From Saprospiraceae bacterium (lineage in GTDB: Bacteria > Bacteroidota > Bacteroidia > Chitinophagales > Saprospiraceae), in the NCBI GenBank assembly GCA_965222645.1, contig OZ244968.1, positions 5,386,008 through 5,450,007 of the forward strand: a stretch of DNA of 64,000 bases, given 5' to 3'. Under the pieces are notes generated by a model. The model saw nothing but the letters and a program-made list of their open reading frames with translations, ran no database searches and was not told the DNA's origin. Positions 10,560-58,235 of the stretch are shown here, piece after piece; the stretch's first letter is position 1; every line of letters begins with the position of its first letter. The translations under genes were made by a program, and so were the position numbers.

Positions 10560-11030
10560 TCGATAGCTGGGGACCCAACTTCGCTTAAGCTTTGGTGGGC
10601 AGGCGTGGCGAGGTGTGGCAGACAAGGGGACCCGCCTTCGCCCTTTTTAAGCTTCTGTTTTCCCATACGAGATAAGCAAGTGCAGCTGTGGACAGCGTGA
10701 GGGCTTTGGCGGGCAGGCGCGGACCCCTTGGAGTATATCTATCCGTTTTATTGGCTGGGGGATCAGATCCTGGATCCCTCAGGCCATGGGTCTATTAGTC
10801 AATGGGTCCCGCCTTCGCCCTTTCTAAGCTTCTGTTTTCGCATGCGAGATGAGCAAGTGCAGCTGTGGACAGGGTGAGGGCTTTGGCGGGCAGGCATGGA
10901 CCCATTGGAGATGCCTATTTATTTTATTGGCTGGGGACCATAGACCATTGGGTCATGGACCCATTGGAGATACCTATTCATTTTTATCGGCTGGGGGTCA
11001 ATAGACCATTGGGTCACGGACCATGGCAGA
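10560..11030. repeat. Direct repeats (~178-bp period, about 2.5 copies) upstream of the DUF2142-like gene
   Basis: GGACCCGCCTTCGCCCTTT(T/C)TAAGCTTCTGTTTTC...GCAAGTGCAGCTGTGGACAG.GTGAGGGCTTTGGCGGGCAGGC..GGACCC.TTGGAG...TTATTGGCTGGGG occurs starting near 10627 and near 10804. There is a further partial copy at 10958-11030. Confidence 0.7.
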
Positions 11031-13155: not shown

Positions 13156-13624
13156 CCCATATGTCGTACCTGACGGCACGATCATTAGGTACGTCGTAGG
13201 GAGTTACCTGCATGTCGTACCTACGGCACGAGCAGGGCCGGCGAATGTAAATTCGCCTTTGACTGCGTGTGGGTTTGAGATAGCCTCCACGTAGTGTTGT
13301 GCCGGTGAATGTAAATTCGCCTTTGACTGCCGATCTATGGTAGGAGTTACCTGCATAATGTACCTACGGCAGGATCATTAAGTCATCGTCTGGAGTTATA
13401 TGCATCTCGTACCTACGGCACGATCATTAAGTCAGCGTTTGGAGTTACCAACATGTCGTACCTACGGCACGAGCAGGGCCGGCGAATGTAAATTCGCAGA
13501 TGTCTCAATGCGGGTCTGTGATAGTCTTTTATGGTAGTGTTGTGCCGGTGAATGTAAATTCGCCTTTGACTCAATGCTGGGTCTGGAGTTACCGACGTTG
13601 GTGTCTGCCGTGACAGTTAAAGTC
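13156..13624. repeat. Cluster of REP-like hairpin repeats between convergent genes
   Basis: Two alternating motifs. ATGTCGTACCTACGGCACGA occurs about 5 times (near 13160, 13207, 13350, 13395, 13445). GCCGG(C/T)GAATGTAAATTCGCC occurs 4 times (near 13237, 13300, 13478, 13543) and contains a GGCGAAT/ATTCGCC 7-bp stem. Confidence 0.75.
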
Positions 13625-26452: not shown

Positions 26453-27454
26453 TCATGCTGCATAGTCAATCTTGTAAGTTCTTTGGTTTTTTACACAAGA
26501 GAAAACCCTACCTACGATCTTGTTACGTATAGCGTTTAAGACCAACATTTTGTTTTTACCTTGTCTGACCTTCCGGATATAGTACGCCTTCATCTCTGGA
26601 TTGTTTCTCACCGAGCTTACAGCGCACATATGTAAGATTGTCTTGAGTGTTTTGTTTGCCATGGGATGGACTTTGGTTCTTCCCCTAAGACTCGATCCTG
26701 AGCTGAATTCGAAGGGAGCAATACCTGCAAAAGATGCCAATTGCTTGGCATTGCTAAAACGTGTAAATCCCCTGGTGTAGACCAGAAGATATGTCGCCGC
26801 AACAAATCCAACGGATTTTACCGAGGTGGCAAGTTCATACTTGACCTTAAGGTCTTCGTTTGATCTGATGGCCTTGAGAATCTTCACCTCTAGAGCTTTT
26901 AGTTCCTCTTTCAAAGCTTCTAAACTCTTGCTACAAGCTTGATGAAGGGCTTCCGATTCACTGACTAACCCAACACTTTTGAGCTCCTTAATCGGCTTGC
27001 TTAAAGACAGTAGTGAGGTCTGTAGTCTTTCTCTAAGTGACAGATAATCAGATATTTGAAGCAGTGCTTTGTCCATCTGTTCATAGGACTTTGCCTTGTC
27101 CTGGTTGCGAAAGGCATAGCTCAGTATGCGTTCAGCATCAATCTCGTCACTTTTTCCCCTTTGGATCCCTCCTGACCACTTTATTTGAACTGGAGTTTCA
27201 ACCCAGACAAATGCTTCCTTTGATTGAAGATAGGTAACCAATAGCCGATGATAAATACCGGTGTTTTCCAAACAGATCAAAGTACTGTTCATTTTCAGCC
27301 CCTGCTTCTTCATCCAATTATACAGTTTATCGAATCCACCTAAATTGTTGGCAAAGCAGGCTTTTCTCACGCTTCGATCAGCTGTATTCTCGCCCAAGGC
27401 TAGATCTATTTTCCTTTTCGATACATCGATGCCCATAATTGAGTCCCATTTCAT
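26453..27454 (-). CDS. IS110-family transposase/recombinase (DEDD RuvC-like N-terminus + Tnp C-terminal domain)
   Basis: MGIDVSKRKIDLAL start and ...LENTGIYHRLL..., with C-terminal SVGFVAATYLL...FSNAKQLASFAGIAPFEFSSGSS..G.TKVHPMANK..K..LHM.A blocks typical of IS110/IS1111. Confidence 0.9.
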   Translation of the reverse strand: MKWDSIMGIDVSKRKIDLALGENTADRSVRKACFANNLGGFDKLYNWMKKQGLKMNSTLICLENTGIYHRLLVTYLQSKEAFVWVETPVQIKWSGGIQRGKSDEIDAERILSYAFRNQDKAKSYEQMDKALLQISDYLSLRERLQTSLLSLSKPIKELKSVGLVSESEALHQACSKSLEALKEELKALEVKILKAIRSNEDLKVKYELATSVKSVGFVAATYLLVYTRGFTRFSNAKQLASFAGIAPFEFSSGSSLRGRTKVHPMANKTLKTILHMCAVSSVRNNPEMKAYYIRKVRQGKNKMLVLNAIRNKIVGRVFSCVKNQRTYKIDYAA

Positions 27455-30195: not shown

Positions 30196-31903
30196 ATAGA
30201 CCGTACTTTCGCTACTAAATCCATCGCCAGGTGCCACCTCATTTTCTTATTTCACAACCAATGATTTAATCCTTTTTTCACTTTTTTGGCACCCGCCTTT
30301 CAGGCCACGCCGGCAGGGCAAAAAGTGGAGCATTCTTGAGCGATCCCGCCAAGGGCGGGGCGAGGTACTGTGTACCTCGAAGTGAAATGAACGTCGTACA
30401 ATGAGTGAGCTCCTGCATCCTTGGTGAGCAACAATTTTAATTATTTTTCTTTTTTGTGACCAAAAAAGAAACAAAAAAGTCTTTCGCTTTCGTGCCTCGT
30501 CCGATAATTATCTATACAGCTGAAGCCGATCTTTTTCGCCATCTCTTCATCATTAAAAGCCTTATGTAGCATGGCTATACGCGGTTTTACTTCTTCGATA
30601 TGACAAAAAATATCTGGCTTGATCTGTACATTTAATTACCAGACGAAACACTGGATCTTTTGCCTAATAGGCCAAACCCACCCCGCTCGTGATCCCAGCC
30701 GTTCGCTTTTTAGGTCATCACTTTGTTGCGCTTGATCGGAAGATGAGATGCCTACCTTCTTTTACGTCCCCAAATGCTCACTTCGGCATCACTCCTTTAC
30801 CTTGCAGTCTTTGTCCTATTTTAACGGCAAAATATCTAAGGCGAGGTAGGCACGCTCCGCATGCCTGTAGGGGGACTCGTCGTGGGGTTCGGGAGTTTCT
30901 TATATTGAATGATGTTCACCCTATTAATTCTTGCTGGAACAAATCTAGGGCTACAACACAAGGTGTGGGGCACCACCTGCGGATGCGAAGTCGGGGTCAG
31001 GGAAGTGGGAAAGAAAGGAGGTAGGGATTCCCAAGCCCGGAGCGAATCGAAGATCACCGAAGCGAGATACCGATATCCACCGGAAGGAGATCGTCGGGTC
31101 GTTGGGAGTGAAGGGATTGGTTAGCCCGGAAATAATTATTCATTCTTTTTTGTGACCAAAAAAGAACCAAAAAAGTCTTTCTCTGTAGTGCCTCGTCCGA
31201 TAATTATCTATACAGGTGAAGCCGATCTTTTTCACCATCTCTTCATCAGTAAAAGCCTTGTGTAGCGCCACTATACTCGGTTTTACTTCTTCGACATGAC
31301 AAAAAATATCTGGCTTGATCTGTACATCTAATTACCAGACGAAACACTGGATCTTTTGCCTAATAGGCCAAAGCCATCCCACTCGAGATCTCAGCCGTTC
31401 GCTTTTTGCCGGTCATTTTATTATTTGTGATCAAAAGGTGACATTTATACCTTTTTTTTACCGATCCTCCTGCACACTTCGGCATCGCTCCTCTACCTTG
31501 CACTCTTTGTCCTATTTTAACTGCAAAATATCTAAGGCGATGTAGGCACGCTCCGCATGCCTGTTGGATCACTCGAGTTGTAAAGTGTTATATTGTGTTA
31601 TTTGAATTTTATCAACCCCATCCAATCCTCTTGTAAACACAATTGTGAGGACTCACCTCCGGACGCGTAGTTGGGGTTTACAAATTATTTTGTGACTTTT
31701 AGGGTGAGTCGAACCGAAAGACCTTTGCTAAAAGGTCTCATTCCGGTATTTCAAATTTTAGTTAAGAATGGTCATATGCATGCTGATGACGGTATCTTTA
31801 TTATTGGGCTCCGGGGCCCGGATTTGATAGTAGATCACGTTTTTTATCAAAAAATTGACTAAAAACACACGTTAAAAATCTATTTTGGAAATTCTAGGAA
31901 AAA
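30196..31903 (+). repeat. Gene-free mosaic repeat block C (M1, M5, M6, M2, M7, M3, M8; ~697-bp internal duplication)
   Basis: M1 is at 30332-30480. The M2 anchor is at 30809 and 31506 (spacing 697). M6 (GTGCCTCGTCCGATAATTATCTATACAG...ACCAGACGAAACACTG) is at 30488-30655 and 31188-31355. M7+M3+M8 at 30877-31145 is near-identical to 17033-17310. Confidence 0.85.
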
Positions 31904-33562
31904 ATGATGATAGCATATAGTTCTTGCCTTGGTCGTTCATTAATGCCATTTAAGTATTTACTCCTTTTAGGTATCCTGATGGCTTGTAATCGGGTGAGCA
32001 AAAATGGCGATGCAGCCCGGACAGTCGAAAAGCCCAATATTCTGTTTGCATTTGCCGATGATTGGGGAAAGTATGCAAGCTGTTATCAAGGCATTGACGG
32101 GCCCCGGTCGATAAATGCCTTATTCAACACACCTAATGTAGATCGGATAGCAAACGAAGGTATACTTTTTAAGCACGCTTTTGTCAATGCACCATCCTGT
32201 ACACCCTGCCGGAGTTCCCTACTTTCTGGTCAGCATTTTTTTCGCACGGGTAGAGGAGCAATTTTGCAAGGTGCTGAGTGGGATGAATCTATTCCAACTT
32301 TCCCGTTACTCCTGCACAACAGCGGGTACCATATCGGCTATACCTACAAAGTCTGGTCTCCAGGTAAACCCCCTGATGCCGGTTATGGAGGAGTTAAAAA
32401 TCGATTTCAACGGGCAGCTCAATTCAATAATTTTAGCCAGCATGTTGCAAAATTTATGGATGAGGATGGAAAGAGTTTGGAGGAAGCCAAAGGGGTTTTG
32501 TATGAGGAGGTCCGGAATAATTTCCAGGATTTTTTAGATGCAAGGGAGCACGACCAACCTTTTTGCTACTGGTGGGGTCCGACGAATGTCCATCGAAAGT
32601 GGATCTATGGTTCCGGAGAGCGATTTTGGAACCTGGATCCGGAAAAACTAAAGGGGAAAATGCCCTCTTTTCTCCCCGATGTCGATACAGTCCGCACTGA
32701 TTTTGCAGATTATTTAGGCGAGATCATGGCTTTTGATGCAGGATTAGGACTTCTTTTGTCCATCCTTGAGGATCGAGGTGAATTGGATAATACTCTGATA
32801 GTAGTGAGTGGAGATCACGGATTTCCTGGCATGACCAATGGCAAATGCAATCTTTATGACTTTGGAGTGCAAGTGCCATTAGTAGCAAGATGGCCCGGTG
32901 TGATTGGTTCCCGTCGTAAAGTGGAAGATTTTGTCAGTCTCCCTGACCTGGCACCTACTTTTCTTGAGGCCGCTGGCGTAGCTCTCCCAAAAGAGATGAC
33001 ATCCCGAAGTCTGATGGGTATTTTCAGGAGTGGTAACAATGGTCAGATTGAGGATGATCGTGACTATGTTATCACAGGAAGAGAAAGACATGTGCGAATG
33101 GCACGTGCAGGCGCACTGCCCTATCCTCAACGTGCAATCCGGACGAAGGAGTTTTTATACATTATTAATTTCGAACCCGACCGGTATCCCATGGGAGATC
33201 CCCTGGGAGTCGATGACAACAATTATGTTCCCGACATCAATGAACTTACCAATAATACGTTTCATGCATTTGGTGATTATGATGCAAGCCCGAGTAAAGC
33301 ATGGATTGTAGCACACCGAAGGGAACCGGATAATAAAAAGTATTTTCAGTTTGCATTTGGAAAAAGGCCAGCTGAAGAATTATTTGAGATAAGAACAGAT
33401 TCCGATCAGGTGATCAATCTGGCTGGCGATCCCCAATACGAGGAAGTGAGGAAGAAACTTAGAAATCAATTAATGGATGTATTGTCTGGTACCGGAGATC
33501 CAAGGGTCATATCTGATGTAATTCCGTACGAGCATCCACCTTTTGCAGGAGAGGAAGAATGA
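31904..33562 (+). CDS. Sulfatase (formylglycine-dependent, S1 family)
   Basis: 552 aa. Signal/lipoprotein start (LLLLGILMAC), FADDWG, Cys-type FGly motif SCTPCRSSLLSGQ, and downstream SGDHG. Confidence 0.9.
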   Translation: MMIAYSSCLGRSLMPFKYLLLLGILMACNRVSKNGDAARTVEKPNILFAFADDWGKYASCYQGIDGPRSINALFNTPNVDRIANEGILFKHAFVNAPSCTPCRSSLLSGQHFFRTGRGAILQGAEWDESIPTFPLLLHNSGYHIGYTYKVWSPGKPPDAGYGGVKNRFQRAAQFNNFSQHVAKFMDEDGKSLEEAKGVLYEEVRNNFQDFLDAREHDQPFCYWWGPTNVHRKWIYGSGERFWNLDPEKLKGKMPSFLPDVDTVRTDFADYLGEIMAFDAGLGLLLSILEDRGELDNTLIVVSGDHGFPGMTNGKCNLYDFGVQVPLVARWPGVIGSRRKVEDFVSLPDLAPTFLEAAGVALPKEMTSRSLMGIFRSGNNGQIEDDRDYVITGRERHVRMARAGALPYPQRAIRTKEFLYIINFEPDRYPMGDPLGVDDNNYVPDINELTNNTFHAFGDYDASPSKAWIVAHRREPDNKKYFQFAFGKRPAEELFEIRTDSDQVINLAGDPQYEEVRKKLRNQLMDVLSGTGDPRVISDVIPYEHPPFAGEEE

Positions 33563-33839
33563 CGAATGACGAATGACGAATGACGAATGACGAGTTACGA
33601 ATGATGAATGACGAATTACGAGTTACGAATGACGAATTACGAATTACGAATTGCGAATTGCGAATTACGAATTACGAATGACGAATTGCGAATTACGAAT
33701 TACGAATTGCGAATGACGAGTGACGAATTGCGAATGACGAATTGCGAATGACGAATTACGAATGACGAGTGACGAGTTACGAATGATGAATGACGAATTA
33801 CGAGTTACGAATGACGAATTACGAATTACGAATTACGTG
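33560..33839. repeat. Heptanucleotide microsatellite, about 40 copies of T(G/T)(A/G)CGA(A/G)
   Basis: Begins at the sulfatase TGA stop (TGACGAA TGACGAA TGACGAA TGACGAA TGACGAG TTACGAA ...) and ends ...TTACGAA TTACGTG. An 8-unit sub-pattern (TGACGAG TTACGAA TGATGAA TGACGAA TTACGAG TTACGAA TGACGAA TTACGAA) occurs near both ends. Confidence 0.95.
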
Positions 33840-45138: not shown

Positions 45139-46275
45139 TTATGTCAGAAGATCTGTCACCACATGGCCATGCACATCTGTGAGGCGAAATCTTCTTCCCT
45201 GGTACTTATAGGTAAGATTTTCGTGGTCTATACCTAAAAGGTGCAAAATCGTCGCCTGGAAATCGTGCACATGCACAGGATTGTCGATGATATTGTAACT
45301 AAAATCATCAGTCAATCCGTATGTAAGTCCCTTTTTTACACCACCGCCGGCCATCCATATGGTAAAGCAACGTGGATGATGATCTCTTCCAAAATCATTT
45401 TTTGTCAATTTGCCTTGTGAATAGACGGTTCGACCAAATTCTCCTCCCCAGATTACCAGGGTATCATCCAGCATACCCCTCTGTTTGAGATCGATGATCA
45501 AGGCTGCCGATGCTTGATCCGTCTGTCTGGAAAGCCTGGGGATTTGCCCTGGCAGGTTACCATGATGGTCCCATCCCCGGTGATACAGCTGGATAAACCG
45601 CACGTCATTTTCGGCTAATTTCCGGGCGAGCAGACAATTTGCGGCATAAGTGCCCGGAACTTTGCTATCAGGTCCGTATAAGTCAAAAATATGATCTGGT
45701 TCCTTTGAAACATCGAGTGCCTCTGGTACTGATGTTTGCATGCGAAAAGCCATCTCGTATTGATTTATTTTGGAGATTATACCAGGGTCTTTCCAGTCTC
45801 GAGCGTTTTGTCGCTGAATATTTATGATTTTTTCCAACTGATTTTTTCGTGCTTCATATGAAAGTCCGTCTGGATTACCGAGATATAATATTGCATTTTT
45901 TCCAGCTCTAAATTGTACTCCTTGATAGTGGGATGGGAGAAAACCATTCCCCCACAGGCGATTGTAAAGGGGTTGCCCTCCACCACCGGCACCTTGAGAA
46001 AGTAGGACACAGAAAGAAGGAAGGTTTTCATTTTCACTCCCGAGACCATAGGTCACCCATGATCCGATGCTGGGTCTTCCCGGCAGTTGGGATCCAGTTT
46101 GGATAAAAGTCACCGCCGGATCATGGTTTATCGCTTCCGTGTACATTGATTTTACAAAACATAATTCGTCGACAATCTGAGCAGTATGAGGCATTAACTC
46201 ACTGACCCATGCGCCGGAGTCTCCATGTTGCGAAAAGTTGTAGGGGGACGAAACCACTGGGAGTTCTGTTTGTCC
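45139..46275 (-). pseudogene. DUF1501 (sulfatase-fold) protein, C-terminal fragment, separated from its N-terminus by IS66
   Basis: The sequence from ...ELPVVSSPYNFSQHGDSGAWVSELMPHTA...SMYTEAINHDPA... to ...GRDHHP... matches DUF1501. The first 14 codons of the track ORF (45139..46317) are IS-end sequence, not gene. Confidence 0.85.
46268..46275. repeat. 8-bp target-site duplication (left copy), GTTTGTCC
   Basis: Identical octamer at 48662-48669, directly abutting the IS66 terminal inverted repeats. Confidence 0.9.
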
Positions 46276-46344
46276 GTAAGCGTCTAGTGATGAGCGTATT
46301 GTCTGCCTGGATATCATTGTTAATCTTTGTGGAAAAGTGCAAAG

Positions 46345-46638
46345 ATGGCCAGACAGAAAAAAGAAGATGTATTCCCATTAATAAAAGGTGTGTTGGAGGG
46401 GCAGATAAGCAAGGAAGACTTTTGTGAATTGACCAATCTGAAGCTATCGAGCTATCAGTATTGGTTGAGGAGATATCAGAATGAAGTGATGAGTAACGGC
46501 TCTTTTGTGCGAGTAAAGACAAATAAAGTGAGGGATCTGCCTTGCAGCGTTGAGATCAGCATAAATCAAGATATAACGATACGTTTTTCACAACTGGTGC
46601 CCCCAGATTATTTACTTAAGCTTATCGAGCAGAAATGA
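46345..46638 (+). CDS. tnpA: IS66 accessory protein TnpA (orf1)
   Basis: Small ORF (ATG 46345; the track starts at TTG 46327) whose TGA overlaps the tnpB ATG (ATGA at 46635-46638). Confidence 0.7.
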   Translation: MARQKKEDVFPLIKGVLEGQISKEDFCELTNLKLSSYQYWLRRYQNEVMSNGSFVRVKTNKVRDLPCSVEISINQDITIRFSQLVPPDYLLKLIEQK

Positions 46639-47000
46639 TAGGGTTATCCACCACGCACCGGTATTACATGTATCGCCATCCCACAGATATGAGAAAGAGC
46701 TTTACGGGGTTAGCAGGTTTGGTGATCAATGAGATGGGAGTAGATCCATTGCAGGGAGATGCCTACCTATTTGTAAATAAGCGTCGTACGTTAATAAAGG
46801 TATTGATATGGGACCGTACAGGTTTTGTGATCTACTATAAGAAATTATCGTCCGGGACATTTGAGTTGCCGAGTTGGAAAGAAAAAGGATCATCGAAAGA
46901 AATAGAAATTCCGACACTACTGATGATGCTGGAAGGAGTACACATAAAAAGTGCAAAACTACGCAAGCGTTATAGGGGCAAGGTAGCTAAAAGGGCGTAG
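46635..47000 (+). CDS. tnpB: IS66 Orf2-like protein TnpB
   Basis: 121 aa. MYRHPTDMRKSFTGLAGLV...GDAYLFVNKRRTLIKVLIWDRTGFVIYYKKL is the conserved IS66 TnpB core. Confidence 0.9.
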   Translation: MIGLSTTHRYYMYRHPTDMRKSFTGLAGLVINEMGVDPLQGDAYLFVNKRRTLIKVLIWDRTGFVIYYKKLSSGTFELPSWKEKGSSKEIEIPTLLMMLEGVHIKSAKLRKRYRGKVAKRA

Positions 47001-47075
47001 AAATAAATCGAATAAATAGGAAATATTTTTTGTAAATATTATAAAATAATTGCATGTATTTTTGTAAATTAAAGT

Positions 47076-48611
47076 GTGGAAAGAGTACGACCAACATATG
47101 AGGAATTGGTTGAAATCAATGCTGCACATGTACAACAAATAAATACACAGACACAGCAAATAAGTGTACAGACACAACAAATAAATGCACATGTACAGCA
47201 AATCGCATTACTTAAATACGAATTAGAACAATTAAAAAAAGCCATTACCGGTCCTAGATCAGAACGATTTATCCCAACGGATACAGATCAAGTTTTACTC
47301 TTTGCAGAAGAAAATACCTCAGATGATGAGATGCCTGATCAGAACCAGACAGAGGTAAAAACACTTAAGAAGAAAAAAAGAGGCAAGCGACCTAAGATGC
47401 CTACCCATCTTCCAGTGGATGAAATCATCGTCGAACCGGAAATAGATACATCTCAAATGGAAAGGATAGGGCAGTATGAGAGCTGGAAGTATACCATCAT
47501 ACCCCCGGAAATCAAAATCATAAAAACCATTCGCCCCAAGTATAAAGACGAGCAGGATAGCATTCATATCGCTGATCTAAATGAAGCCTTCCCCAAGACC
47601 AACTTTGATGCTTCTATGATCGCGTACATGATCATTCAAAAGTTTATGTATCATCTACCTGTTTATCGGCAGGTTAAGATGTTTGCAATGTTTGGGCTGT
47701 CATTTTCAAGATCTACGCTGAACAGCAGAGTAATAAAAGGAGCCGCAAAACTAAAATTACTCTATGAACTGCTTAAAACCATGGCTCTTCAATCAAATTA
47801 CTTACAGGCCGATGAATCGTCCATCCCAGTACTCACCAGAGATAAACCAGGAAGTGCCCTAAAAGGATGTGTGCTGATTAAACTAGCTCCCAAAGAAAAA
47901 TTGGTCGTATTTGATTATATAAAAACTAAAGAAAAGGTAAATATTTTAGGAGGCCTGAATGGGTTTAGTGGTCATCTGCAGGTAGATGGTAATGTCTCCT
48001 ATGAAACGAAAGGAAGACAAGTAGATGTTACCCTCATGCATTGCATGGTCCATAGCCGACGTAATTTTTTTGAAGCAAGAGATTACAATAGAAAAAAAGC
48101 AGACCATATGTTGGGACTAATCAGTCAGCTCTATGACATTGAAAGAAAATGTAAAGAAGACAACCTGGATCCCGAGCAAATACGCCAACGAAGACAAAGT
48201 GATTCAATCCCTGTGCTCAATGACATCAAGAAGTGGCTGGAAGATAATATCCAACCCAATCTACCCACTAATCCCCTACAGCAAGCAATTAACTATATGC
48301 TCAAAAGATGGGATGGTCTAATCGAATACACCAAAGATGGCAATTTACAACCTGATAATAATTTGATCGAAAATCAAATACGTCCCTTGGCATTGGGCCG
48401 AAAAAATTATCTTTTTTGTGGCTCACATGATGGTGCTCGCATGGCAACCATCGCCTATAGTCTGATCGCAACTTGCAAACTCAATGGTATCGACCCTTTC
48501 CGGTGGCTCATTTATGCATTCAATCACATTGATGGGCATGACATCAATAAGCTACATCAACTATTACCCATTGAGAAAAACAAACAGATATTCAAGCAAA
48601 CCATTGCTTGA
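47076..48611 (+). CDS. tnpC: IS66-family DDE transposase TnpC
   Basis: 511 aa (GTG start). N-terminal Gln-rich coiled coil/leucine zipper. Blocks ...LPVYRQ..., ADESSIPVL, LQVDGN..Y, ...HCMVHSRRNF.EA, and NLIENQIRPLALGRKNYLF.GSH.GA. Confidence 0.92.
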   Translation: MERVRPTYEELVEINAAHVQQINTQTQQISVQTQQINAHVQQIALLKYELEQLKKAITGPRSERFIPTDTDQVLLFAEENTSDDEMPDQNQTEVKTLKKKKRGKRPKMPTHLPVDEIIVEPEIDTSQMERIGQYESWKYTIIPPEIKIIKTIRPKYKDEQDSIHIADLNEAFPKTNFDASMIAYMIIQKFMYHLPVYRQVKMFAMFGLSFSRSTLNSRVIKGAAKLKLLYELLKTMALQSNYLQADESSIPVLTRDKPGSALKGCVLIKLAPKEKLVVFDYIKTKEKVNILGGLNGFSGHLQVDGNVSYETKGRQVDVTLMHCMVHSRRNFFEARDYNRKKADHMLGLISQLYDIERKCKEDNLDPEQIRQRRQSDSIPVLNDIKKWLEDNIQPNLPTNPLQQAINYMLKRWDGLIEYTKDGNLQPDNNLIENQIRPLALGRKNYLFCGSHDGARMATIAYSLIATCKLNGIDPFRWLIYAFNHIDGHDINKLHQLLPIEKNKQIFKQTIA

Positions 48612-48661
48612 AACTTAATCCAGTGCCATTTATTACTATACGTAGATTGCAGGACGCTTAC

Positions 48662-48669
48662 GTTTGTCC
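48662..48669. repeat. 8-bp target-site duplication (right copy), GTTTGTCC
   Basis: See 46268-46275. Confidence 0.9.
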
Positions 48670-48951
48670 TGCAGACATTCCTGTGAGACGCTGGCCTTTA
48701 CGTACAGAGTCTGGCAGGTTTTGACCATGAAATTTTTTGATCGTTGGCTTGTGATCAAAAAGATCCAATTGAGAAGGTGCTCCACTCTGAAAGAGATAAA
48801 TCACTCGTTTGACCTTGGCTGGAAAGTGGGTCGTAGGTGGAGAAGCCCGGGCCGGATTTAGAAGCCCGGACAAGGTAAGTGCACCTAATCCAAGAGTTGT
48901 TTTGCTCAAGAAATCCCGGCGGCTGAATGGTTTATAATTATCGCATTCCAT
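48662..48951 (-). pseudogene. DUF1501 protein, N-terminal fragment (Tat signal)
   Basis: The sequence is MECDNYKPFSRRDFLSKTTLGLGALTLSG...VIYLFQSGAPSQLDLFD...RLTGMSAGQ|. Removing the IS and one TSD copy joins ...GMSAGQT to ELPVVSSPYNF in frame. Confidence 0.85.
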
Positions 48952-49169: not shown

Positions 49170-52100
49170 TAATAAAAGGCTCATGGTCGGTGATCGGACG
49201 GATCGATTTACCTCGATTGTTTCTAAGGGGAGGTTTGATGCGTAGGGAATATACATTATCATTTAGGATAGTATTAATTTTCATCGCCACGTTTCACACA
49301 TCAGAAGTTGCGGAACAAGGTGCTCGTCATCGGTGATCGGACGGATCGATTTACATCAATTGTTTCTAAGGGAGAATTACCGCGTACGGTACGCGTACGA
49401 ATATGTAACAGATAATCAATGTAATATACATCTTAGATATATTAATGTAAACTTTTTATCGATCACTTTTCACAAACCAGAAAATCAGAACAACTGCCTC
49501 AGTAGCCATTGAGCCTTGTTAAGTTTAGCAATCTTAATCTCACTGGGGAGAAATTGTACGTACGGTACGCGCACGAATATGTAGCAGATAATCAAGGGAA
49601 TATACATTATGATGTAAGTTGATATTAATTTTTATGCTCGCGTTTCACGCATCAGAAGCTAGTTAACGAGGAGCCCATCATCGGTGACCGTACGGATCGA
49701 TTTACATCAATTGTTTCTAAGGGGAGAATCGCATGCGTACGGTACGCGTACGAATATATCACAGAATATCAAGGGAATATACATTATCATTTAGGATAGT
49801 ATGAATATTCATTGCCACGTTTCACACATCAGAAGTTGCAGAACAAGGTGCTAGTCGTTGGTGATCGGACGGATCGTTTCACTGCTATAGTTTCACTGGA
49901 GAGAATTGCCGCGTACGGTACGCGTACGAATATGTAACAGAATATCAGTTGAATATACATCATGAAGTAAATTAATATGAATTTTCATGGCCACGTTTCA
50001 CACATCAGAAGTTGCGGACAAGGTGCTCGTCATCGGTGATCGGACGGATCGATTTACCTCGATTGTTTCTAAGGGAGAATTGCCGCGTACGGTACGCGTA
50101 CGAATATATCTCAGAATATCAAGGGAATATACATTATGATATAAATTGATATTAATTTTTATTGCCACGTTTCACACATCAGAAGTTGCGGAACAAGGTG
50201 CTCGTCATCGGTGATCGGACGGATCGTTTCACTACTATCGTTTCACTGTAGAGAATTGTTGCGTACGGTACGCGTACGAATATATAGCAGAATATCAGTT
50301 GAATATACATTATGATATAAATTGATATTAATTTTCATTGCCACATTTCACACATCAGAAGTTGCGGAACAAGGTGCTCGTCGTCGGTGATCGGACGGAT
50401 CGATTTACTGCTATAGTTTCACTGGAGAGGATTGCATGCGTACGGTACGCGTACGAATATGTAGCAGATAATCAAGGGAATATACATTATGATGTAAGTT
50501 GATATTAATTTTTATGCTCGCGTTTCACGCATCAGAAGCTAGTTAACGAGGAGCCCATCATCGGTGACCGTACGGATCGATTTACATCAATTGTTTCTAA
50601 GGGGAGAATCGCATGCGTACGGTACGCGTACGAATATATCACAGAATATCAAGGGAATATACATTATCATTTAGGATAGTATGAATATTCATTGCCACGT
50701 TTCACACATCAGAAGTTGCAGAACAAGGTGCTAGTCGTTGGTGATCGGACGGATCGTTTCACTGCTATAGTTTCACTGGAGAGAATTGCCGCGTACGGTA
50801 CGCGTACGAATATGTAACAGAATATCAGTTGAATATACATCATGAAGTAAATTAATATGAATTTTCATGGCCACGTTTCACACATCAGAAGTTGCGGACA
50901 AGGTGCTCGTCATCGGTGATCGGACGGATCGATTTACCTCGATTGTTTCTAAGGGAGAATTGCCGCGTACGGTACACGTACGAATATATCTCAGAATATC
51001 AAGGGAATATACATTATGATATAAATTGATATTAATTTTTATTGCCACGTTTCACACATCAGAAGTTGCGGAACAAGGTGCTCGTCATCGGTGATCGGAC
51101 GGATCGTTTCACTACTATCGTTTCACTGTAGAGAATTGTTGCGTACGGTACGCGTACGAATATATAGCAGAATATCAGTTGAATATACATTATGATATAA
51201 ATTGATATTAATTTTCATTGCCACATTTCACACATCAGTAGTTGCGGAACAAGGTGCTCGTCGTCGGTGATCGGACGGATCGATTTACTGCTATAGTTTC
51301 ACTGGAGAGGATTGCATGCGTACGGTACACGTACGAATATGTAGCAGATAATCAAGGGAATATACATTATGATGTAAGTTGATATTAATTTTTATGCTCG
51401 CGTTTCACGCATCAGAAGTTAGTTAACGAGGAGCCCATCATCGGTGATCGGACGGATCGATTTACATCAATTGTTTCTAAGGGGAGAATCGCATGCGTAC
51501 GGTACGCGTACGAATATATCACAGAATATCAAGGGAATATACATTATCATTTAGGATAGTATGAATATTCATTGCCACGTTTCACACATCAGAAGTTGCA
51601 GAACAAGGTGCTAGTCGTTGGTGATCGGACGGATCGTTTCACTGCTATAGTTTCACTGGAGAGAATTGCCGCGTACGGTACGCGTACGAATATGTAACAG
51701 AATATCAGTTGAATATACATCATGAAGTAAATTAATATGAATTTTCATGGCCACGTTTCACACATCAGAAGTTGCGGACAAGGTGCTCGTCATCGGTGAT
51801 CGGACGGATCGATTTACCTCGATTGTTTCTAAGGGAGAATTGCCGCGTACGGTACGCGTACGAATATATCTCAGAATATCAAGGGAATATACATTATGAT
51901 ATAAATTGATATTAATTTTTATTGCCACGTTTCACACATCAGAAGTTGCGGAACAAGGTGCTCGTCATCGGTGATCGGACGGATCGTTTCACTACTATCG
52001 TTTCACTGTAGAGAATTGTTGCGTACGGTACGCGTACGAATATATAGCAGAATATCAGTTGAATATACATTATGATATATATTGATATGAATTTTCATTG

Positions 52101-52525
52101 CCACGTTTCACACATCAGAAGTTGCGGAACAAGGTGCTCGTCATCGGTGATCGGACGGATCGTTTCACTACTATCGTTTCACTGTAGAGAATTGTTGCGT
52201 ACGGTACGCGTACGAATATATAGCAGAATATCAGTTGAATATACATTATGATATATATTGATATTAATTTTCATTGCCACGTTTCACACATCAGAAGTTG
52301 CGGAACAAGGTGCTCGTCGTCGGTGATCGGACGGATCGATTTACTGCTATAGTTTCACTGGAGAGGATTGCATGCGTACGGTACGCGTACGAATATGTAG
52401 CAGATAATCAAGGGAATATACATTATGATGTAAGTTGATATTAATTTTTATGCTCGCGTTTCACGCATCAGAAGTTAGTTAACGAGGAGCCCATCATCGG
52501 TGATCGGACGGATCGATTTACATCA
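49170..52525. repeat. Tandem ~176-bp satellite, left arm (about 19 units; three near-identical 880-bp five-unit higher-order repeats)
   Basis: The core GTACGGTACGCG (within GCGTACGGTACGCGTACGAATAT) is at 49384, 49560, 49737, 49913, 50087, 50263, 50440, 50617, 50793, 50967, 51143, 51320, 51497, 51673, 51847, 52023, 52199 and 52376. Spacing is 174-177. Five unit types a-e recur with period 880 (49560, 50440, 51320). Units at the left edge (49170-49560) are degenerate. Confidence 0.95.
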
Positions 52526-52601
52526 TTAGCTATGATGCAGGAACGATCCTTGTTTGACAATCTGCTTCCAAAGCACTATCTTGGTTACCTAAATAGGATA
52601 C

Positions 52602-52832
52602 ATGCCCACGTATTTCATAGTGGATGGGGTTAAGATTGAACTGTACTACAATGATCACAATCCACCCCATTTCCATGCAAGAATTGCTGAACATGATGCA
52701 ATCATAAGTATCGAAATGGCTGAAATCTTGCATGGAACTCTACCCTCTAATAAAATCTCATTCATCAAGAAGTGGGCTGAGGAAAACAGGACAACATTGC
52801 AGGCAATATGGAACGAACTAAGAAAGAAATAG
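52602..52832 (+). CDS. DUF4160-domain protein (putative toxin-antitoxin-like module component)
   Basis: 76 aa, with the family hallmark ...YYNDHNPPHFHARI... Confidence 0.8.
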   Translation: MPTYFIVDGVKIELYYNDHNPPHFHARIAEHDAIISIEMAEILHGTLPSNKISFIKKWAEENRTTLQAIWNELRKK

Positions 52833-53359
52833 GTTTAAAGGCCTACCGTAGAATCCCACGAATCATCAAGATCACCAAGGTCAGGGATTTCAAGATCTAC
52901 TGTGCCTTCAACACAGGCGAATACAAGATCATCAATTTCACCAAGTTTTTCGAACGATGGAACTTGAAGAAAACAGATTTTGCCTATCCCCTACTTAAAC
53001 CATCAAGATTCAGGAAGGTCAAGCTGATTAACGGCACCCTAAGCTGGCCTGACATAAAAAAGACCATCAAAATCGGTAGCGGACAAGAGTTCGAAACATA
53101 TCTTGATCTCGATCCCGTCGTACTCTACGAATCAAGTGAAGATGATCATAAAGCCAATCAGAGATACAAGATCGGCCAACTTCTAAAAAGCGCTAGACTT
53201 GATGCTGGTCTTACTCAGCAACAACTCGCAATCCGCTCTGGCACCACTAAGAACTACATATCCCGCATCGAGAATAATAGATCTGACATTGAACTACGAA
53301 CTTTAAGGAAGATCGTAGAGATTGGACTAGGAAAAAACCTCGAAATCGCCGTAACTTAA
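52808..53359 (+). CDS. DUF2442-like N-terminal domain fused to an XRE-family helix-turn-helix DNA-binding domain
   Basis: 183 aa. The N-terminal half (IIKITKVRDFKIYCAFNTGEYKIINF...GTLSWPD) is DUF2442-like. The C-terminal LLKSARLDAGLTQQQLAIRSGTTKNYISRIENNRSDIELRTLRKIVEIGLG is a Cro/C1-type HTH. Overlaps the DUF4160 ORF by 25 nt. Confidence 0.75.
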   Translation: MERTKKEIGLKAYRRIPRIIKITKVRDFKIYCAFNTGEYKIINFTKFFERWNLKKTDFAYPLLKPSRFRKVKLINGTLSWPDIKKTIKIGSGQEFETYLDLDPVVLYESSEDDHKANQRYKIGQLLKSARLDAGLTQQQLAIRSGTTKNYISRIENNRSDIELRTLRKIVEIGLGKNLEIAVT

Positions 53360-53486
53360 AGCAGCATTGCTCGGCATCATGACGCCATCTCCTCTTGCAC
53401 CAATTAACCACCTCACTTAGTTGATCTGCGTTCAACCGATTATCAATTCGTCAACAAAAGTAACGAGACGGAGCATATGCCCAAAA

Positions 53487-55115
53487 CGATTGTTTCTAAG
53501 GGAGGTTTGATACGTACGGTACGCGTACGAATATGTAGGAGATAATCAAGGGAATATACATTATGATGTAAGTTTATATTAATTTTTATGCTCGCGTTTC
53601 GCGCATCAGAAGTTAGGAAACGAAGGGCCCATCATCGGTGATCAGCTGGATCGATTTACCTCGATTGTTTCTAAGGGGAGGTTTGATGCGTACGGTACGC
53701 GTACGAATATATCACAGAATATCAAGGGAATATACATTATCATTTAGGATAGTATTAATTTTCATTGCCACGTGTCACACATCAGAAGTTGCGGAACAAG
53801 GTGCTCGTCATCGGTGATCGGACGGATCGATTTACTGCTATAGTTTCACTGGAGAGAAATGCATGCGTACGGTACGCGCACGCATATATTACAGAATATC
53901 AATTGAATATACATAATTATATAAATTAATATGAAATCTTATGCTCGCGTTTCACCAGCAGAAGGTAGTTAACGAGGGGCCCATCATCGGTGATCGGACG
54001 GATTGATTTACATCAATTGTTTCTAAGGGAGAATTGCCGCGTACGGTACGCGTACGAATATGTAACAGAATATCAGTTGAATGTACATAATGAAGTAAAT
54101 TAATATGAATTTTCATGGCCACGTTTCACACATCAGAAGTTGCGGAACAAGGTGCTCGTCGTTGGTGATCGGACGGATCGATTTACTGCTATAGTTTCAC
54201 TGGAGAGAAATTGTGCGTACGGTACGCGTACGAATATATAGCAGAATATCAGTTGAATATACATTATGATATAAATTTTTATTAATTTTCATTGCCACGC
54301 TTCACCCATCAGAAGTTGTGGAACAAGGTGCTCGTCATCGGTGATCGGACGGATCGATTTACATCAATTGTCTCTAAGGGAGAACTACCGCGTACGGTAC
54401 GCGTATGAATATATTCTAGAATATCAATTGAACATACATAATGATATAAATTAATATGAAATCTCATACTCGCGTTTCACGCATCAGAAGGTAGTTAACT
54501 TGGGGCCCGTCATCGGTGATCGGACGGATCGATTTACCTCGATTGTTTCTAAGGGGAGGTTTGATGCGTACGGTACGCGTACGAATATATCACAGAATAT
54601 CAAGGGAATATACATTATCACTTAGGATAATATTAATTTTCATTGCCACGCTTCACCCATCAGAAGTTGCGGAACAAGGTGCTCGTCGTTGGTGATCGGA
54701 CGGATCGTTTCACTGCTATAGTTTCACTGGAGAGAAATGCATGCGTACGGTACGCGTACGAATATATTACAGAATATCAATTGAATATACATAATGATAT
54801 GAATTAATATGAATTTTTGTGCTCGCATTTCACCCATCTGAAGGTAGTTAACGAGGGGCCCATCATCGGTGACCGTACGGATCGATTTACATCAATTGTC
54901 TCTAAGGAAGAACTGCCGCGTACGGTACGCGTACGAATATGTAGCAGTTAATCAATTGAACATACATAATGATATAAATTAATATGAATTTTTATGCTCG
55001 CGTTTCACCCATCAGAAGGTAGTTAACGAGGGGCCCATCATCGGTGATCGGACGGATCGATTTACTTCGATTGTTTCTAAGGGGGTTTGCTGCGTACGGT
55101 ACGCGTACGAATATG
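53487..55115. repeat. Tandem ~176-bp satellite, right arm (10 more-diverged units)
   Basis: The same core is at 53514, 53690, 53867, 54041, 54217, 54392, 54568, 54745, 54920 and 55094. Spacing is 174-177. Units resemble types a, b, c and e of the left arm, plus an additional type. Confidence 0.95.
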
Positions 55116-55208
55116 TTACTAAAGTTCAGCTACTTATAGATAGATCATATACTATATATGCAAATACACCAACTGCTGGCTCGTAATCAGGATGAAAATC
55201 CCCTTCAA

Positions 55209-55448
55209 TCAACCCATCTCTGGCAACGCCTCAAACTCCTTCCGCTTGCTTTCAAACCACTCCTGCATCGCCACAGGTGATTTCATCAATTCCTGCATCT
55301 GCTGCATCGCTTGCAAATGATCTGTATCACCCTGCTCAAACATCTCTCTCCCATGTTCTTTACTCATTTCAGCCATTTCGTCGAATGTCGATGCAACAAA
55401 TTCTTTTTCACAGGCACCACCTAGTTGTCGGCATGTCATTTTTTTCAT
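55209..55448 (-). CDS. DUF1059-family small protein
   Basis: The 79-aa version starts MKKMTCRQLGGACEKEF...MSKEHG...MQELMKSP.AMQEWFESKRKEFEALPE. The track's 119-aa form adds 40 codons that overlap the 3' end of the upstream gene. Confidence 0.7.
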   Translation of the reverse strand: MKKMTCRQLGGACEKEFVASTFDEMAEMSKEHGREMFEQGDTDHLQAMQQMQELMKSPVAMQEWFESKRKEFEALPEMG

Positions 55449-55515: not shown

Positions 55516-58224
55516 TTAAATCGGCACGTTCGATAATTCATAAATGGTACCCTGGTAAGCACCTTCAAATTGATTACCGTTTTTATCCTCTAGCTGGTAT
55601 AAGATTTCAACTATCCAGGTGGGTGACAGATCCGGAATTTCCAGCATCACGGTTTTATTGTCGTTTACAAATTTAATCTCGCTGATGTCAAGAGATTTTT
55701 CATCGTATCGATCAGAGCCATACCGGCGGGATCGTTTTAGCTGCCACGTATTTATTTGAAAGTTATTGCGATCGATTTTCAACGGATCAATTGGCTCACT
55801 AAAGGTGATTTCGATTCCATCCATCCATGTATTGATCGCCAAAGGAAGGTTTAGAGGCTTTTTCTCATCGTAATTTATGCGATATAATCCACCTGTCTGA
55901 AGCATCTGACTAGTAGCCCATGCCGACATACCACAGATATATAGCTGGCCATCAGAAGGATTAAATCGGCCTCTGATAAGTCCGGTCGGACATTGTGGAA
56001 TAGGTAATTCAATGATTCCCCCCTGCTCTTTGTTTTTTATTTTTTCTTTAAGTACTAAAAATATTTTCCCATATCCATATGACAAACTCAATAACGAATT
56101 ATTTAAGGGACCCCAAAGATCTGTTTTTGCCCAAAGCAACTCTGCAGGAGATCTGTCATATCTCATGTCAACCCAGCACAAGGGCATTTCCATGGCTTTA
56201 TCACTCGTATCCTGTGGTGCACCATATCCCCACATATTGCCATAAAACTTTCCTGGCAATACACGGTTTATCCGGTTCATTGGATTCCAATAGCCCTCCT
56301 GGTCTGTCACATAAAACGATCCATCCGGATTTAAACAAACTCCATTTGCAGCCCGGAAACCATTTGCCAGAATTTCGGATTCTGTTCCGTCTGAGCTGAC
56401 CTTTATCAAAGTGCCATGCTGGGGCACGAGAGATGTTCGGGCATGCCTTCCACTCTTTGCGTAATAAAAATTTCCTTCGTCATCAACTTGTAATCCCATT
56501 GCAAATTCGTGAAAATGTTCCGTGACCTGGTGATCATTATTAAAACTTTCGTAGAAATCAATAATTTCATCACCGTTGAGATCGTGCAGTCTTACAATCT
56601 GATCCCGACAAGTGACGTACGTTTGGTTTTTAAAAACTTTTATCCCCAACGGCTGAAACATTCCTGTTGCAATTCTCTGCCAATTTATTTCACCAGTTAT
56701 ATTATTTATTTTTTCTATTTTCCAAACTTCCCCATCGATAGTGCAGACGAGTGCATCTCTTCCATCGTTGATAAAATCTATACCTGTCGGCCTTATTCTG
56801 CTTTGCCATCTATTGTTGAGTGGAAGAGAAAAGATGTCAAGCGATAATGCCCTCTCACTATCCATATTGATAATATTGCTGCTTAGGGATTCAGAATTTG
56901 TTTTCTTTCCACCCTGAGTGTATTTTCTTAAATCCTCAATTGCACCCGATGAATATTCTTCATCTGATGCGATCTCCTCCTTAGACATCAGAATTTTAAT
57001 TTTGTCGCTATTTGCCGGTTCGATTACCAATACATGATACCCATCTTCAATTTTCACGGTTGCATTTAGTGCAATCATTTTTACTTTAAAATGCTCCGGA
57101 AGAATTCGCATTGATAGAGTCCTGGAAACATTAGATGCATTAATTGTACGGGTAATGACAGATTGATTGGCTATTGTATCAAGGCTGTACATTTCCAGAA
57201 TTGATGCTTTTCCTACTGTGTATTTGAGGATGACATTTCCGTTGTGATGATACAGGCCTTTATAATGAGCCCAGTCCCGAGGTAAGGGTCCGAATGGCCG
57301 TCCATCTAAACCTCTTATTCTCGGATCTTGAAAACTTCCCGTAAGTGGATTTGCCCAACCCGGTGTGATCGGGTTTGCAGCTAGAAGATTCCCCTTGGTA
57401 CGGGGATAGACATTGTGTTGGTCATCTAATAGTATGCTTTCCCAATCTATAAATCCTTTACCGGTCCAGATTCCTGCCAAGCGTAAAAGGTCGTGATCGA
57501 AGCACGCAAAAGTCTCGCCTGCGGCTATACCGCCTGGTCCTCCGTCAAGTCGCATCGCTATGCCCTTGTAAGCAAAGTTTACATCGCTATAATCTTCGTT
57601 AGGCAACGGTGCTCTCCCACCGGAAATCTTTTTCTGAGAATCATTGTCATCGGCGATTTCATAACATTGAACCAAGAAATTGCCGTAATCCATATCGGAC
57701 CATGGGTGATAGTCTTTTGGAGGAGGACCAATGGTATCCCCTTTTGGAAGTTGAGCAAGGTACTCTGCTGTAATCTCAGTATAAGACTCAGATTGATACT
57801 CTTTTATAAACTCCTCCCTTATAAAATGAATTACATCATATTTCTCGAGTGGCGAGAGATGTACTTGAGGAGGCATCTGACCAAACCCTTGAGTTAAGAC
57901 TTTATAAATACTGTGAGGATCAGAGCCCTTTTTAAACTCATCTTCCCAAAATTTTCGAGAATTCGGAAGTGAGCCCGGTTGTTCAGAATCGCCGTGACAA
58001 GCATAGCATGTGTTCCGGTATATAGTCTGTCCCCGAAAATACTTACTCCGATCGTTATCGCGCAAAAAGGCGGCATGGTCAAGACGATTTTCATATTCTG
58101 GTAGATCAACGGATTTTAGGATATACTGATCCCCGGGAAGAATACGGTTGGAATCTACATTTTCTGCACAGGCCCAAATCATCAACAGAAATGCTGGAAT
58201 CAGTAGCAATTTCGATTTATCCAT
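55516..58224 (-). CDS. Cytochrome-c-domain protein fused to beta-propeller (sugar dehydrogenase-like) region
   Basis: About 902 aa from ATG 58224 (MDKSKLLLIPAFLLMIWAC lipoprotein-like). Heme motif CYACHGD followed by ...GFGQMPP. The C-terminal two-thirds is beta-rich, with NGD..ID and GF....G blocks reminiscent of SGL/PQQ-type propellers. Confidence 0.55.
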   Translation of the reverse strand: MDKSKLLLIPAFLLMIWACAENVDSNRILPGDQYILKSVDLPEYENRLDHAAFLRDNDRSKYFRGQTIYRNTCYACHGDSEQPGSLPNSRKFWEDEFKKGSDPHSIYKVLTQGFGQMPPQVHLSPLEKYDVIHFIREEFIKEYQSESYTEITAEYLAQLPKGDTIGPPPKDYHPWSDMDYGNFLVQCYEIADDNDSQKKISGGRAPLPNEDYSDVNFAYKGIAMRLDGGPGGIAAGETFACFDHDLLRLAGIWTGKGFIDWESILLDDQHNVYPRTKGNLLAANPITPGWANPLTGSFQDPRIRGLDGRPFGPLPRDWAHYKGLYHHNGNVILKYTVGKASILEMYSLDTIANQSVITRTINASNVSRTLSMRILPEHFKVKMIALNATVKIEDGYHVLVIEPANSDKIKILMSKEEIASDEEYSSGAIEDLRKYTQGGKKTNSESLSSNIINMDSERALSLDIFSLPLNNRWQSRIRPTGIDFINDGRDALVCTIDGEVWKIEKINNITGEINWQRIATGMFQPLGIKVFKNQTYVTCRDQIVRLHDLNGDEIIDFYESFNNDHQVTEHFHEFAMGLQVDDEGNFYYAKSGRHARTSLVPQHGTLIKVSSDGTESEILANGFRAANGVCLNPDGSFYVTDQEGYWNPMNRINRVLPGKFYGNMWGYGAPQDTSDKAMEMPLCWVDMRYDRSPAELLWAKTDLWGPLNNSLLSLSYGYGKIFLVLKEKIKNKEQGGIIELPIPQCPTGLIRGRFNPSDGQLYICGMSAWATSQMLQTGGLYRINYDEKKPLNLPLAINTWMDGIEITFSEPIDPLKIDRNNFQINTWQLKRSRRYGSDRYDEKSLDISEIKFVNDNKTVMLEIPDLSPTWIVEILYQLEDKNGNQFEGAYQGTIYELSNVPI

Positions 58225-58235
58225 ACAACGCAAAA

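Follow-up and report, generated by a model that had tools for sequence, protein, structure and literature searches.

In this study, we analysed a 64-kb window of a Saprospiraceae genome (GCA_965222645.1, contig OZ244968.1), by which we mean the whole stretch of 64,000 nucleotides (nt), and characterised within it a non-coding array of about 5 kb that consists of about 28 tandem 176-bp units in a single orientation. All position numbers refer to this window, which is contained in a single contig of 6,228,811 bp. The locus is a tandem repeat of the satellite or variable number tandem repeat (VNTR) type with higher-order organisation, and the features that define such a repeat were all found in it; as a bacterial satellite the array is unusually large and higher-order-structured, although the kind itself is not categorically new. 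Comparison with a second strain showed that the array is rapidly rearranged by recombination between units. As to what the unit is for, the reading that we favour, with a probability of roughly 40%, is that it may be a protein-binding DNA module in a recombination-driven satellite, acting either in titration or as a nucleoprotein platform.

Period-176 tandem arrays were detected by Tandem Repeats Finder (TRF) at 49244-52521 (18.6 copies, 81% matches) and at 53489-55119 (9.3 copies). The exact core GTACGGTAC[AG]CG was found 28 times, always on the plus strand, 18 times in the left arm and 10 times in the right arm, at a spacing of 174-177 bp, in agreement with the strictly phased monomers described in an initial annotation of this DNA. 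When at most one mismatch was allowed in the 12-mer core, 38 matches on both strands were obtained, every one of them inside the array, with 0.04 expected by chance, and the unit length was 174-177 bp in all 32 units measured. The array starts at about 49176, and unit sequence is still recognisable for about 45 nt beyond the last core, to about 55138. Its parts are as follows.

49176-52526, no strand assigned: left arm of the 176-bp array (TRF, core positions, unit alignment), made up of a partial first unit, the leading unit without a core (49208-49383), one unit of strong divergence (49384-49559), 16 units arranged in blocks and, next to the insertion, 151 bp from the 5' side of a broken unit (52376-52526)
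49560-50439, no strand assigned: higher-order block 1, units a-e, 880 bp (block comparison, identity matrix)
50440-51319, no strand assigned: higher-order block 2, units a-e, 880 bp (block comparison, identity matrix)
51320-52375, no strand assigned: higher-order block 3, six units, namely a, b, c, d, an e/d hybrid and e (identity matrix, block comparison)
53489-55138, no strand assigned: right arm of the array (TRF, cores, identity matrix, unit profile), beginning with what is left of the broken unit on its 3' side, then nine complete units of greater divergence, the last core at 55094 and about 45 nt of degenerate unit sequence

A unit-by-unit identity matrix together with direct block comparison showed that five unit types, a to e, recur three times as an 880-bp block at 97-100% identity, while adjacent units inside one block are merely 74-90% identical. 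Blocks 1 and 2 are identical except at 3 of 880 positions. The first four units of block 3 are those of blocks 1 and 2, but in fifth place it has an e/d hybrid (52023), with an additional e unit (52199) behind it. The 880-bp repeat proposed for anchors 49560, 50440 and 51320 was confirmed, with the correction that the third block is an imperfect copy. The substitutions that had been quoted between blocks were recovered at block positions 9, 12, 99, 128 and 131. The near-identical centre with diverged edges and right arm, also pointed out in the initial annotation, was seen both in the unit alignment and in the identity matrix, the more diverged parts being the leading unit, which has lost its core through a deletion, unit 49384 and the entire right arm.

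The array is present at the same locus in a second strain, on the independent 42.7-kb contig L002 (ENA ERZ25072999), whose DUF6797 protein matches the window protein in 902 of its 902 residues. This contig is colinear with the window across the right flank and on into the array, where it stops about 7 units in, so the comparison covers the right-flank end of the array in one other strain. The proportion of synonymous differences (pS) over three flanking genes is about 2.4% (32 of 1328 synonymous sites) and that of nonsynonymous differences (pN) is 0.1-0.6%. Colinearity is limited to the 2.6 units next to the flank, which show 6 differences over 454 bp (1.3%); deeper in the array the order of unit types differs, some units of the window are absent from L002 and one L002 unit is novel. 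Unit types are 10-30% apart, and several of them are common to both strains at 93-98% identity, which implies that the diversified array is much older than the 2.4% strain split. The 880-bp blocks, the hybrid unit and the differing unit orders are accounted for by unequal recombination and conversion between units. These data show that the array grows, shrinks and is reshuffled via unequal homologous recombination and gene conversion between units, and that units are gained and lost far faster than point substitutions build up. The unequal-crossover dynamics suspected earlier are thereby borne out, by non-colinear interiors in strains about 2.4% apart and by the recombinant e/d unit of block 3. 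The arrangement of units varies between these close strains, while flank-proximal units and genes stay colinear.

The possibility that the repeat was expanded, collapsed or made chimeric by the assembly has little left to recommend it. Blocks 1 and 2 are 99.7% identical, so that the exact number of blocks hinges on reads longer than about 3 kb, and the L002 contig breaks within the array. However, the window lies on one 6.23-Mb contig, the independent contig of the second strain has at least 7 units with the same junction and the same flank, and most units can be told apart (74-93% identity), the right arm and both edges being effectively unique. We regard an artefact as the least credible of the explanations considered here.

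Nucleotide diversity per column was calculated from an alignment of 27 distinct units from both strains. Mean diversity of the array is about 0.20-0.21, and it falls to 0.02 in a first conserved stretch (Box 1) and to 0.03 in a second one (Box 2). Both are exemplified by the diverged unit 49384.

49384-49404, plus strand: example of Box 1 (diversity scan)
49422-49431, plus strand: example of Box 2, which reads TAATATACAT in this diverged unit (diversity scan)

Box 1, GTACGGTACGCGTACGAATAT, contains three GTACG pentamers and the dyad GCGTAC-G-GTACGC, found in 28 of 29 units, and has the first GAATAT at its end. GAATAT is repeated twice more, in steps of 12 and then 11 bp, at about one helical turn per step, and the final copy is Box 2 (consensus GAATATACAT), which lies about 38 nt downstream of the core start in each unit and has about 25 nt of AT-rich variable DNA after it. 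The 12-nt anchor that opens Box 1 occurs 28 times, and the full 21-mer is exact in most units. The 9 nt past the anchor, which were not used in defining the units, have a diversity of 0.03, with a permutation P=0.001 for exactly this position. The two most diverged units (49384 in the window and L002-153) keep both boxes, with bodies that are 30-45% different. About six independent recent point changes were counted among the higher-order copies, three of them in the core, namely G-to-A at CpG twice and T-to-C once; since half of the recent changes fall there, the core is mutable in the short term, yet it is undegraded in old units. The changes in question, among near-identical copies, are GTACGGTACGCG to GTACGGTACACG, which occurred twice, in units 50967 (at 50976) and 51320 (at 51329), and GCGTACG to GCGCACG at 49572. 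The CpG changes may point to cytosine methylation followed by deamination at the core.

Two other interpretations of the conserved sequence were discarded. A large dyad around the core proved to be the flanking inverted repeat of one unit pair and is not kept in other unit pairs, and a cluster of restriction sites was dismissed as GTAC, CGTACG and GATC show no sign of avoidance in the rest of the window.

A dyad and pentamer core, helically phased direct repeats, an AT tract and a single orientation together have the anatomy of a composite protein-binding site, and the fact that a deletion-prone array persists, with its phase and two boxes held while the bodies drift, suggests selection on a function at the DNA level. 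We propose that the unit would be not a gene but a DNA module to which a sequence-specific protein binds. In every 176 bp, an almost invariant GC-rich core, GAATAT repeats 11-12 bp apart and an AT-rich tract would be presented on one strand and in one phase, and about 28 regularly spaced composite sites of this sort would make up a high-capacity binding platform, which could titrate a regulator or nucleate a nucleoprotein or chromosome-organising complex. Selection would hold the boxes and the unit length while the remainder of the unit drifts. The mobile cassette described below, with its DUF4160 and helix-turn-helix (HTH) genes, struck the array later. More doubtful is the fuller claim of a selectively maintained chromosomal protein-binding satellite, in which about 28 phased composite sites would recruit or titrate a specific protein, crossover would renew the units and selection would hold the box and the 176-bp phase. 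The protein-binding scaffold listed among the possible roles in the initial annotation is compatible with the two near-invariant boxes; the protein itself is the part that was not found.

Several observations weigh against a binding module. No binding protein was identified, no par, rep or regulator gene adjoins the array, and the sole nearby DNA-binding gene belongs to the later insertion. No solo core was found upstream of any gene within the 64 kb, and thus there is no sign of a regulon. The invariance of the anchor is partly circular because the 12-nt anchor defined the units, and for the 9 nt beyond it the permutation gives merely P=0.09 when any 9-nt stretch is allowed. The 1.3% divergence of orthologous units is not significantly below the 2.4% synonymous rate, the array is known from one species alone and hence has no comparative support for a function, and the conservation of the boxes could stem from a conversion bias or a hotspot of recombination instead of selection.

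The main rival is a selectively neutral satellite or VNTR, in which slippage or unequal recombination would have duplicated a local sequence that then expanded, contracted and became homogenised without serving any function, and the boxes would be conversion or recombination hotspots, or chance; we consider this explanation nearly as likely as the binding module. It would fit the rapid turnover of units between strains, the very recent amplification of blocks (3 differences per 880 bp), the roughly neutral rate at which orthologous units diverge, the toleration of a 962-bp insertion, the lack of partner genes nearby, the restriction to one species with absence from relatives that share the right-flank synteny, and surroundings rich in repeats and insertion sequences (IS), including IS66, IS110 and a 7-bp microsatellite among others. 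On the other hand, the unit types long predate the separation of the strains, and both strains have nevertheless kept an array of many units despite the risk of recombinational deletion; the length stays fixed at 174-177 bp even where units diverge by up to 30%; conservation is very uneven along the unit, with the two boxes retained in units whose bodies were replaced; and the core takes recent mutations but does not degrade in old units.

No gene was recognised in the array. It has no open reading frame (ORF) of at least 80 aa in any frame, and no ATG-initiated ORF of at least 12 aa is common to all units, several of which are without any; the longest unit peptides have no Pfam match. An array of small proteins or type I toxins was rejected on the same grounds, namely that ORF conservation across units is absent and Pfam is blank for the longest peptides. 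Rfam gave nothing at gathering score in the window and nothing inside the units at E values up to 10, and ARAGORN found no tRNA gene. As the full 176 bp is repeated with no unique spacers, clustered regularly interspaced short palindromic repeats (CRISPR) were rejected too, and the earlier statement that the array is not CRISPR, rRNA, tRNA or coding sequence was upheld. A known Rfam family in the unit had been named as grounds for giving up the array claim; no such family matched.

An RNA gene in each unit is a separate matter. The unit could encode one small RNA (sRNA), expressed from an activator-dependent or alternative-sigma promoter that would lie within the conserved box and the AT-rich region, or the array could yield a long unstructured RNA sponge. 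Its layout resembles that of arrays of sRNA paralogues that share promoters: 57 conserved nt upstream, then AT-rich sequence, then a body of about 95 nt of distinct types. A weak sigma-70-like -35/-10 pair (TTAATA or TTCATA, N18, TATATT) is found on the minus strand of most units, with a consensus that is not the main one of Bacteroidota, and near-matches to the TAnnTTTG box, TAATTTTC on the plus strand and TATATTCG on the minus strand, occur in about half of the units each; activator-dependent promoters can match the consensus poorly, and since there is no terminator between the DUF1059-like gene of the right flank and the array on the minus strand, read-through is possible. However, the exact TAnnTTTG box, the -7 box of Bacteroidota, is absent from the array on either strand, and about half of the units have lost the decisive TA or T of the near-matches, while boxes of this type stand about 20 nt upstream of several genes of the window, for example at 48980-48973 before the ATG of the DUF1501 gene. 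By eye, no consistent match to extracytoplasmic function (ECF) or sigma-54 motifs was seen. Terminator-like sites in the array number 2 against 3.8 expected. The RNAalifold consensus on doubled unit alignments is weak on both strands, folds of single units disagree, and mean folding z-scores against dinucleotide shuffles are +0.5 to +1.6, which means less structured than shuffled sequence. A hand-built hairpin (GCC/GCUC..GUUUC..GGAAC..GGU/GAGC) was abandoned, since only 65% of cells can pair and slid controls show covariation at least as good. Moreover, real small transcription units of the same window are easily told by box and terminator. We judge an sRNA array improbable, and the small transcripts suggested in the initial annotation are disfavoured, the units being without TAnnTTTG box, terminator, conserved fold or Rfam match.

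The two arms are one array, split by a 962-bp insertion inside a single unit. The unit from 52376 is normal up to ...GATCGATTTACATCA (52526) and picks up at 53489 with ATTGTTTCTAAGG..., precisely in register.

52527-53488, plus strand: mobile cassette of 962 bp with no target duplication (junction comparison, Pfam, comparison with locus L021)
52602-52832, plus strand: DUF4160 gene, 76 aa (Pfam PF13711, E=2.6e-15)
52808-53359, plus strand: XRE-type HTH gene, 183-aa ORF, with homologues of about 174 aa (Pfam HTH_3, E=9.5e-11; homologues)

The ends of the cassette, TTAGCTATGATG... and ...GAGACGGAGCATATGCCCAAAACG (the right end being also given as ...GCCCAAAACG and as GAGACGGAGCATATGCYCAAAACG), are common to L021, a locus on an unrelated 2.35-Mb contig, where the same gene pair lies amid tyrosine recombinases, a Y2 transposase and IS21. 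Homology between the window and L021 ends exactly at the junctions of cassette and array, so the gap between the arms, judged by this comparison, marks the insertion of a discrete mobile cassette into an array that already existed, and not the boundary of two arrays. In L021 (4700-6429) the left end of the cassette is preceded by ...CCAAAACG, a junction that suggests site-specific recombination at CG^TT. The 117-bp 3' terminal element of the cassette has a minus-strand TAnnTTTG box (53462-53455) directed antisense into the HTH gene. A type III toxin-antitoxin (ToxI-like) array was rejected, as the DUF4160/HTH insertion breaks a unit and repeats lie on both sides of the pair, and a functional link between the array and this pair was rejected because homologous pairs elsewhere (L019-L021) are without such repeats.

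The cassette raises the question of whether the whole locus might be an array of site-specific recombination cassettes of the integron attC or Xer/dif type, with the DUF4160/HTH pair as a further cassette. The sharp ends, shared with the tyrosine-recombinase-rich L021, and the lack of target duplication would agree with it, as would a conserved part and variable "content" in each unit and a unit order that depends on the strain. A minus-strand stretch of 13 nt, CATAATGTATATT, is presumably identical to the XerC arm and central region of Escherichia coli dif, but the would-be XerD arm is mismatched. The cassette has no duplicated flanking sites of the unit type and its ends are unlike the unit, the unit has no GTTRRRY/RYYYAAC pair or attC-like imperfect hairpin, no integrase is encoded within the 64 kb, and higher-order blocks with a hybrid unit are the signature of homologous exchange. 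This explanation is very improbable.

Outside the two strains the array was not recovered. Relatives at about 64% DUF6797 identity have kept the right-flank synteny, with MacB genes at the position of the array and no similarity to the unit. A search of GTDB representative genomes with the tandem-core pattern gave one chance match (L001) without a repeat; in JGI metagenomes the 21-mer had no match and the tandem-core pattern had 14 loci with nothing beyond the 12-mer in common; IMG/VR had no match, and neither did plasmids and phages searched with blastn. A unit profile run with nhmmer against the rest of the window and all fetched loci found no solo copy. The unit is thus single-locus in the 64-kb window and restricted to this lineage across the collections searched by pattern, blastn and nhmmer. 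One of the loci retrieved, an unrelated contig (L013, JGI Ga0265306_10188958, 148-646), has a 173-bp tandem repeat of 2.9 copies with the palindrome CCGTACGGTACACGG in each unit; as only the GTACGGTAC motif is in common, its likeness to the array is probably a coincidence.

The closest parallels that we can draw are with alpha-satellite in form, with plasmid centromere arrays such as sopC in possible function, and with long-unit bacterial VNTRs in taxonomic context. The alpha-satellite of eukaryotic centromeres consists of 171-bp monomers in higher-order repeats and has a 17-bp CENP-B box. The array resembles it in monomer length (176 vs 171 bp), in diverged monomers (74-90%) arranged in near-identical multi-monomer blocks, in a homogenised centre with diverged edges, in a short near-invariant box within variable monomers, and in unequal crossover and conversion; unlike alpha-satellite, it measures 5 kb and not megabases, lies on a bacterial chromosome, which has no nucleosomes or kinetochore, and is found in one species. 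The sopC locus of F has 12 repeats of 43 bp, each with an inverted repeat bound by SopB, and the iteron clusters of parC and parS are comparable. These arrays share with ours head-to-tail non-coding repeats, one short dyad-symmetric motif per unit and a fixed phase, a layout typical of platforms that bind a protein in many copies, but our unit is four times longer than that of sopC, is present in 28 copies and is chromosomal. No ParA or ParB domain was found among 30 annotated ORFs, and genes of the parA/parB or sopA/sopB type are not present in the 64 kb. A parS or partition site was discarded as a candidate, there being no match to canonical parS beyond chance.

Long-unit intergenic VNTRs of bacteria include mycobacterial interspersed repetitive units (MIRU), Wolbachia VNTR-105/141 and the VNTRs of Enterococcus, and their function is mostly obscure. 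Like the array they are intergenic and non-coding, with units of tens to more than 100 bp and a copy number or arrangement that varies in close strains; the array differs in its much greater copy number (28) and length (5 kb), its higher-order repeat, its two boxes, and unit types that predate the strain split. Tandem sRNA arrays, such as cyanobacterial NsiR1 (12 copies), Listeria LhrC1-4 and Pseudomonas RsmX, are similar in unit size (about 150-250 bp) and in joining a conserved region upstream to a body that varies, but each of their units has a promoter, a terminator hairpin and a conserved fold, none of which was found in the array. The repetitive extragenic palindromic (REP) sequences and bacterial interspersed mosaic elements (BIME) of enterobacteria are also intergenic and built on short GC-rich palindromes, and BIMEs bind proteins (IHF, gyrase). 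However, BIMEs are dispersed in hundreds of copies, in alternating orientation and with units of about 35-100 bp, whereas the array occupies a single locus in a single orientation with no solo copies. A literature search found no description of a comparable bacterial array. The earlier description of the array as very unusual for a bacterial chromosome is justified for its size and higher-order organisation; long-unit intergenic VNTRs are in themselves already known.

The array lies between PSCyt/PSD1 and DUF1501 genes on the left side and a DUF1059-like ORF, a DUF6797 cytochrome c gene, an SDR gene and a DUF7133 gene on the right side. The proteins of these flanks have their best homologues in Saprospiraceae (phylum Bacteroidota). 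Its nearest neighbours are as follows.

48658-48951, minus strand: N-terminal fragment of the DUF1501 gene in the left flank, split by IS66 (Pfam; TAnnTTTG box at 48980-48973)
55209-55448, minus strand: small DUF1059-like ORF in the right flank, downstream of the DUF6797 gene (weak Pfam match, E=0.0057, under the family cut-off)
55516-58233: DUF6797 cytochrome c gene in the right flank

With regard to a contingency locus, another candidate role in the initial annotation, the neighbouring DUF1501 gene has a TAnnTTTG promoter box of its own, at a distance of about 22 nt from the ATG and about 200 bp clear of the array. This gene is interrupted by an IS66 element (46327-48611) with tnpA, tnpB and tnpC ORFs at 46327-46638, 46635-47000 and 47076-48611, and its parts on either side encode a 392-aa C-terminal portion (45139-46317) and a 97-aa N-terminal portion (48658-48951); several near-identical IS66 transposases are present in the same genome. 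A replication origin or terminus was rejected, as there is no switch in GC skew.

The wider region is generally repeat-rich. A second, unrelated repeat family occupies three ORF-poor gaps (15600-17700, 20900-23600 and 30300-31700), with units of about 665-696 bp that are partly in tandem (22092/22757/23422 and 30447/31143). Every copy has TAnnTTTG boxes on both strands and convergent terminators made of a hairpin and a T run, and no Rfam match or convincing ORF was found in the family; by these signals its members look like repeated small transcription units. In addition, a 7-bp microsatellite (GAATTAC) of 40 copies at 33557-33837 directly follows the stop of a sulfatase ORF (31904-33562), and short intergenic repeats of 61 bp x 2.1 and 49 bp x 2.7 lie within 10620-11022 and 13195-13527, two stretches that also have 114- and 92-nt pairs at 177- and 241-bp spacing. 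An IS110-family transposase (26453-27454, DEDD_Tnp_IS110 and Transposase_20) is located amid carbohydrate- and sulfatase-type genes.

Long non-coding tandem arrays with higher-order structure are a textbook feature of eukaryotic centromeres. To our knowledge, few have been described from bacterial chromosomes, one reason being that they collapse in assemblies made from short reads. The present locus provides a small, fully sequenced case in two strain versions, in which block amplification, hybrid units, diverged edges and the insertion of a cassette can be read base by base. If the satellite is neutral, it shows that a bacterial genome can carry 5 kb of such DNA and go on renewing it well beyond the time scale on which strains diverge. 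If the boxes bind a protein, the array would provide a natural platform with many binding sites in Bacteroidota, possibly either a regulator sponge or a chromosome-organising element, and if it is a selectively maintained binding satellite, it would represent a bacterial analogue of alpha-satellite and the CENP-B box, or a naturally occurring transcription-factor sponge of high capacity.

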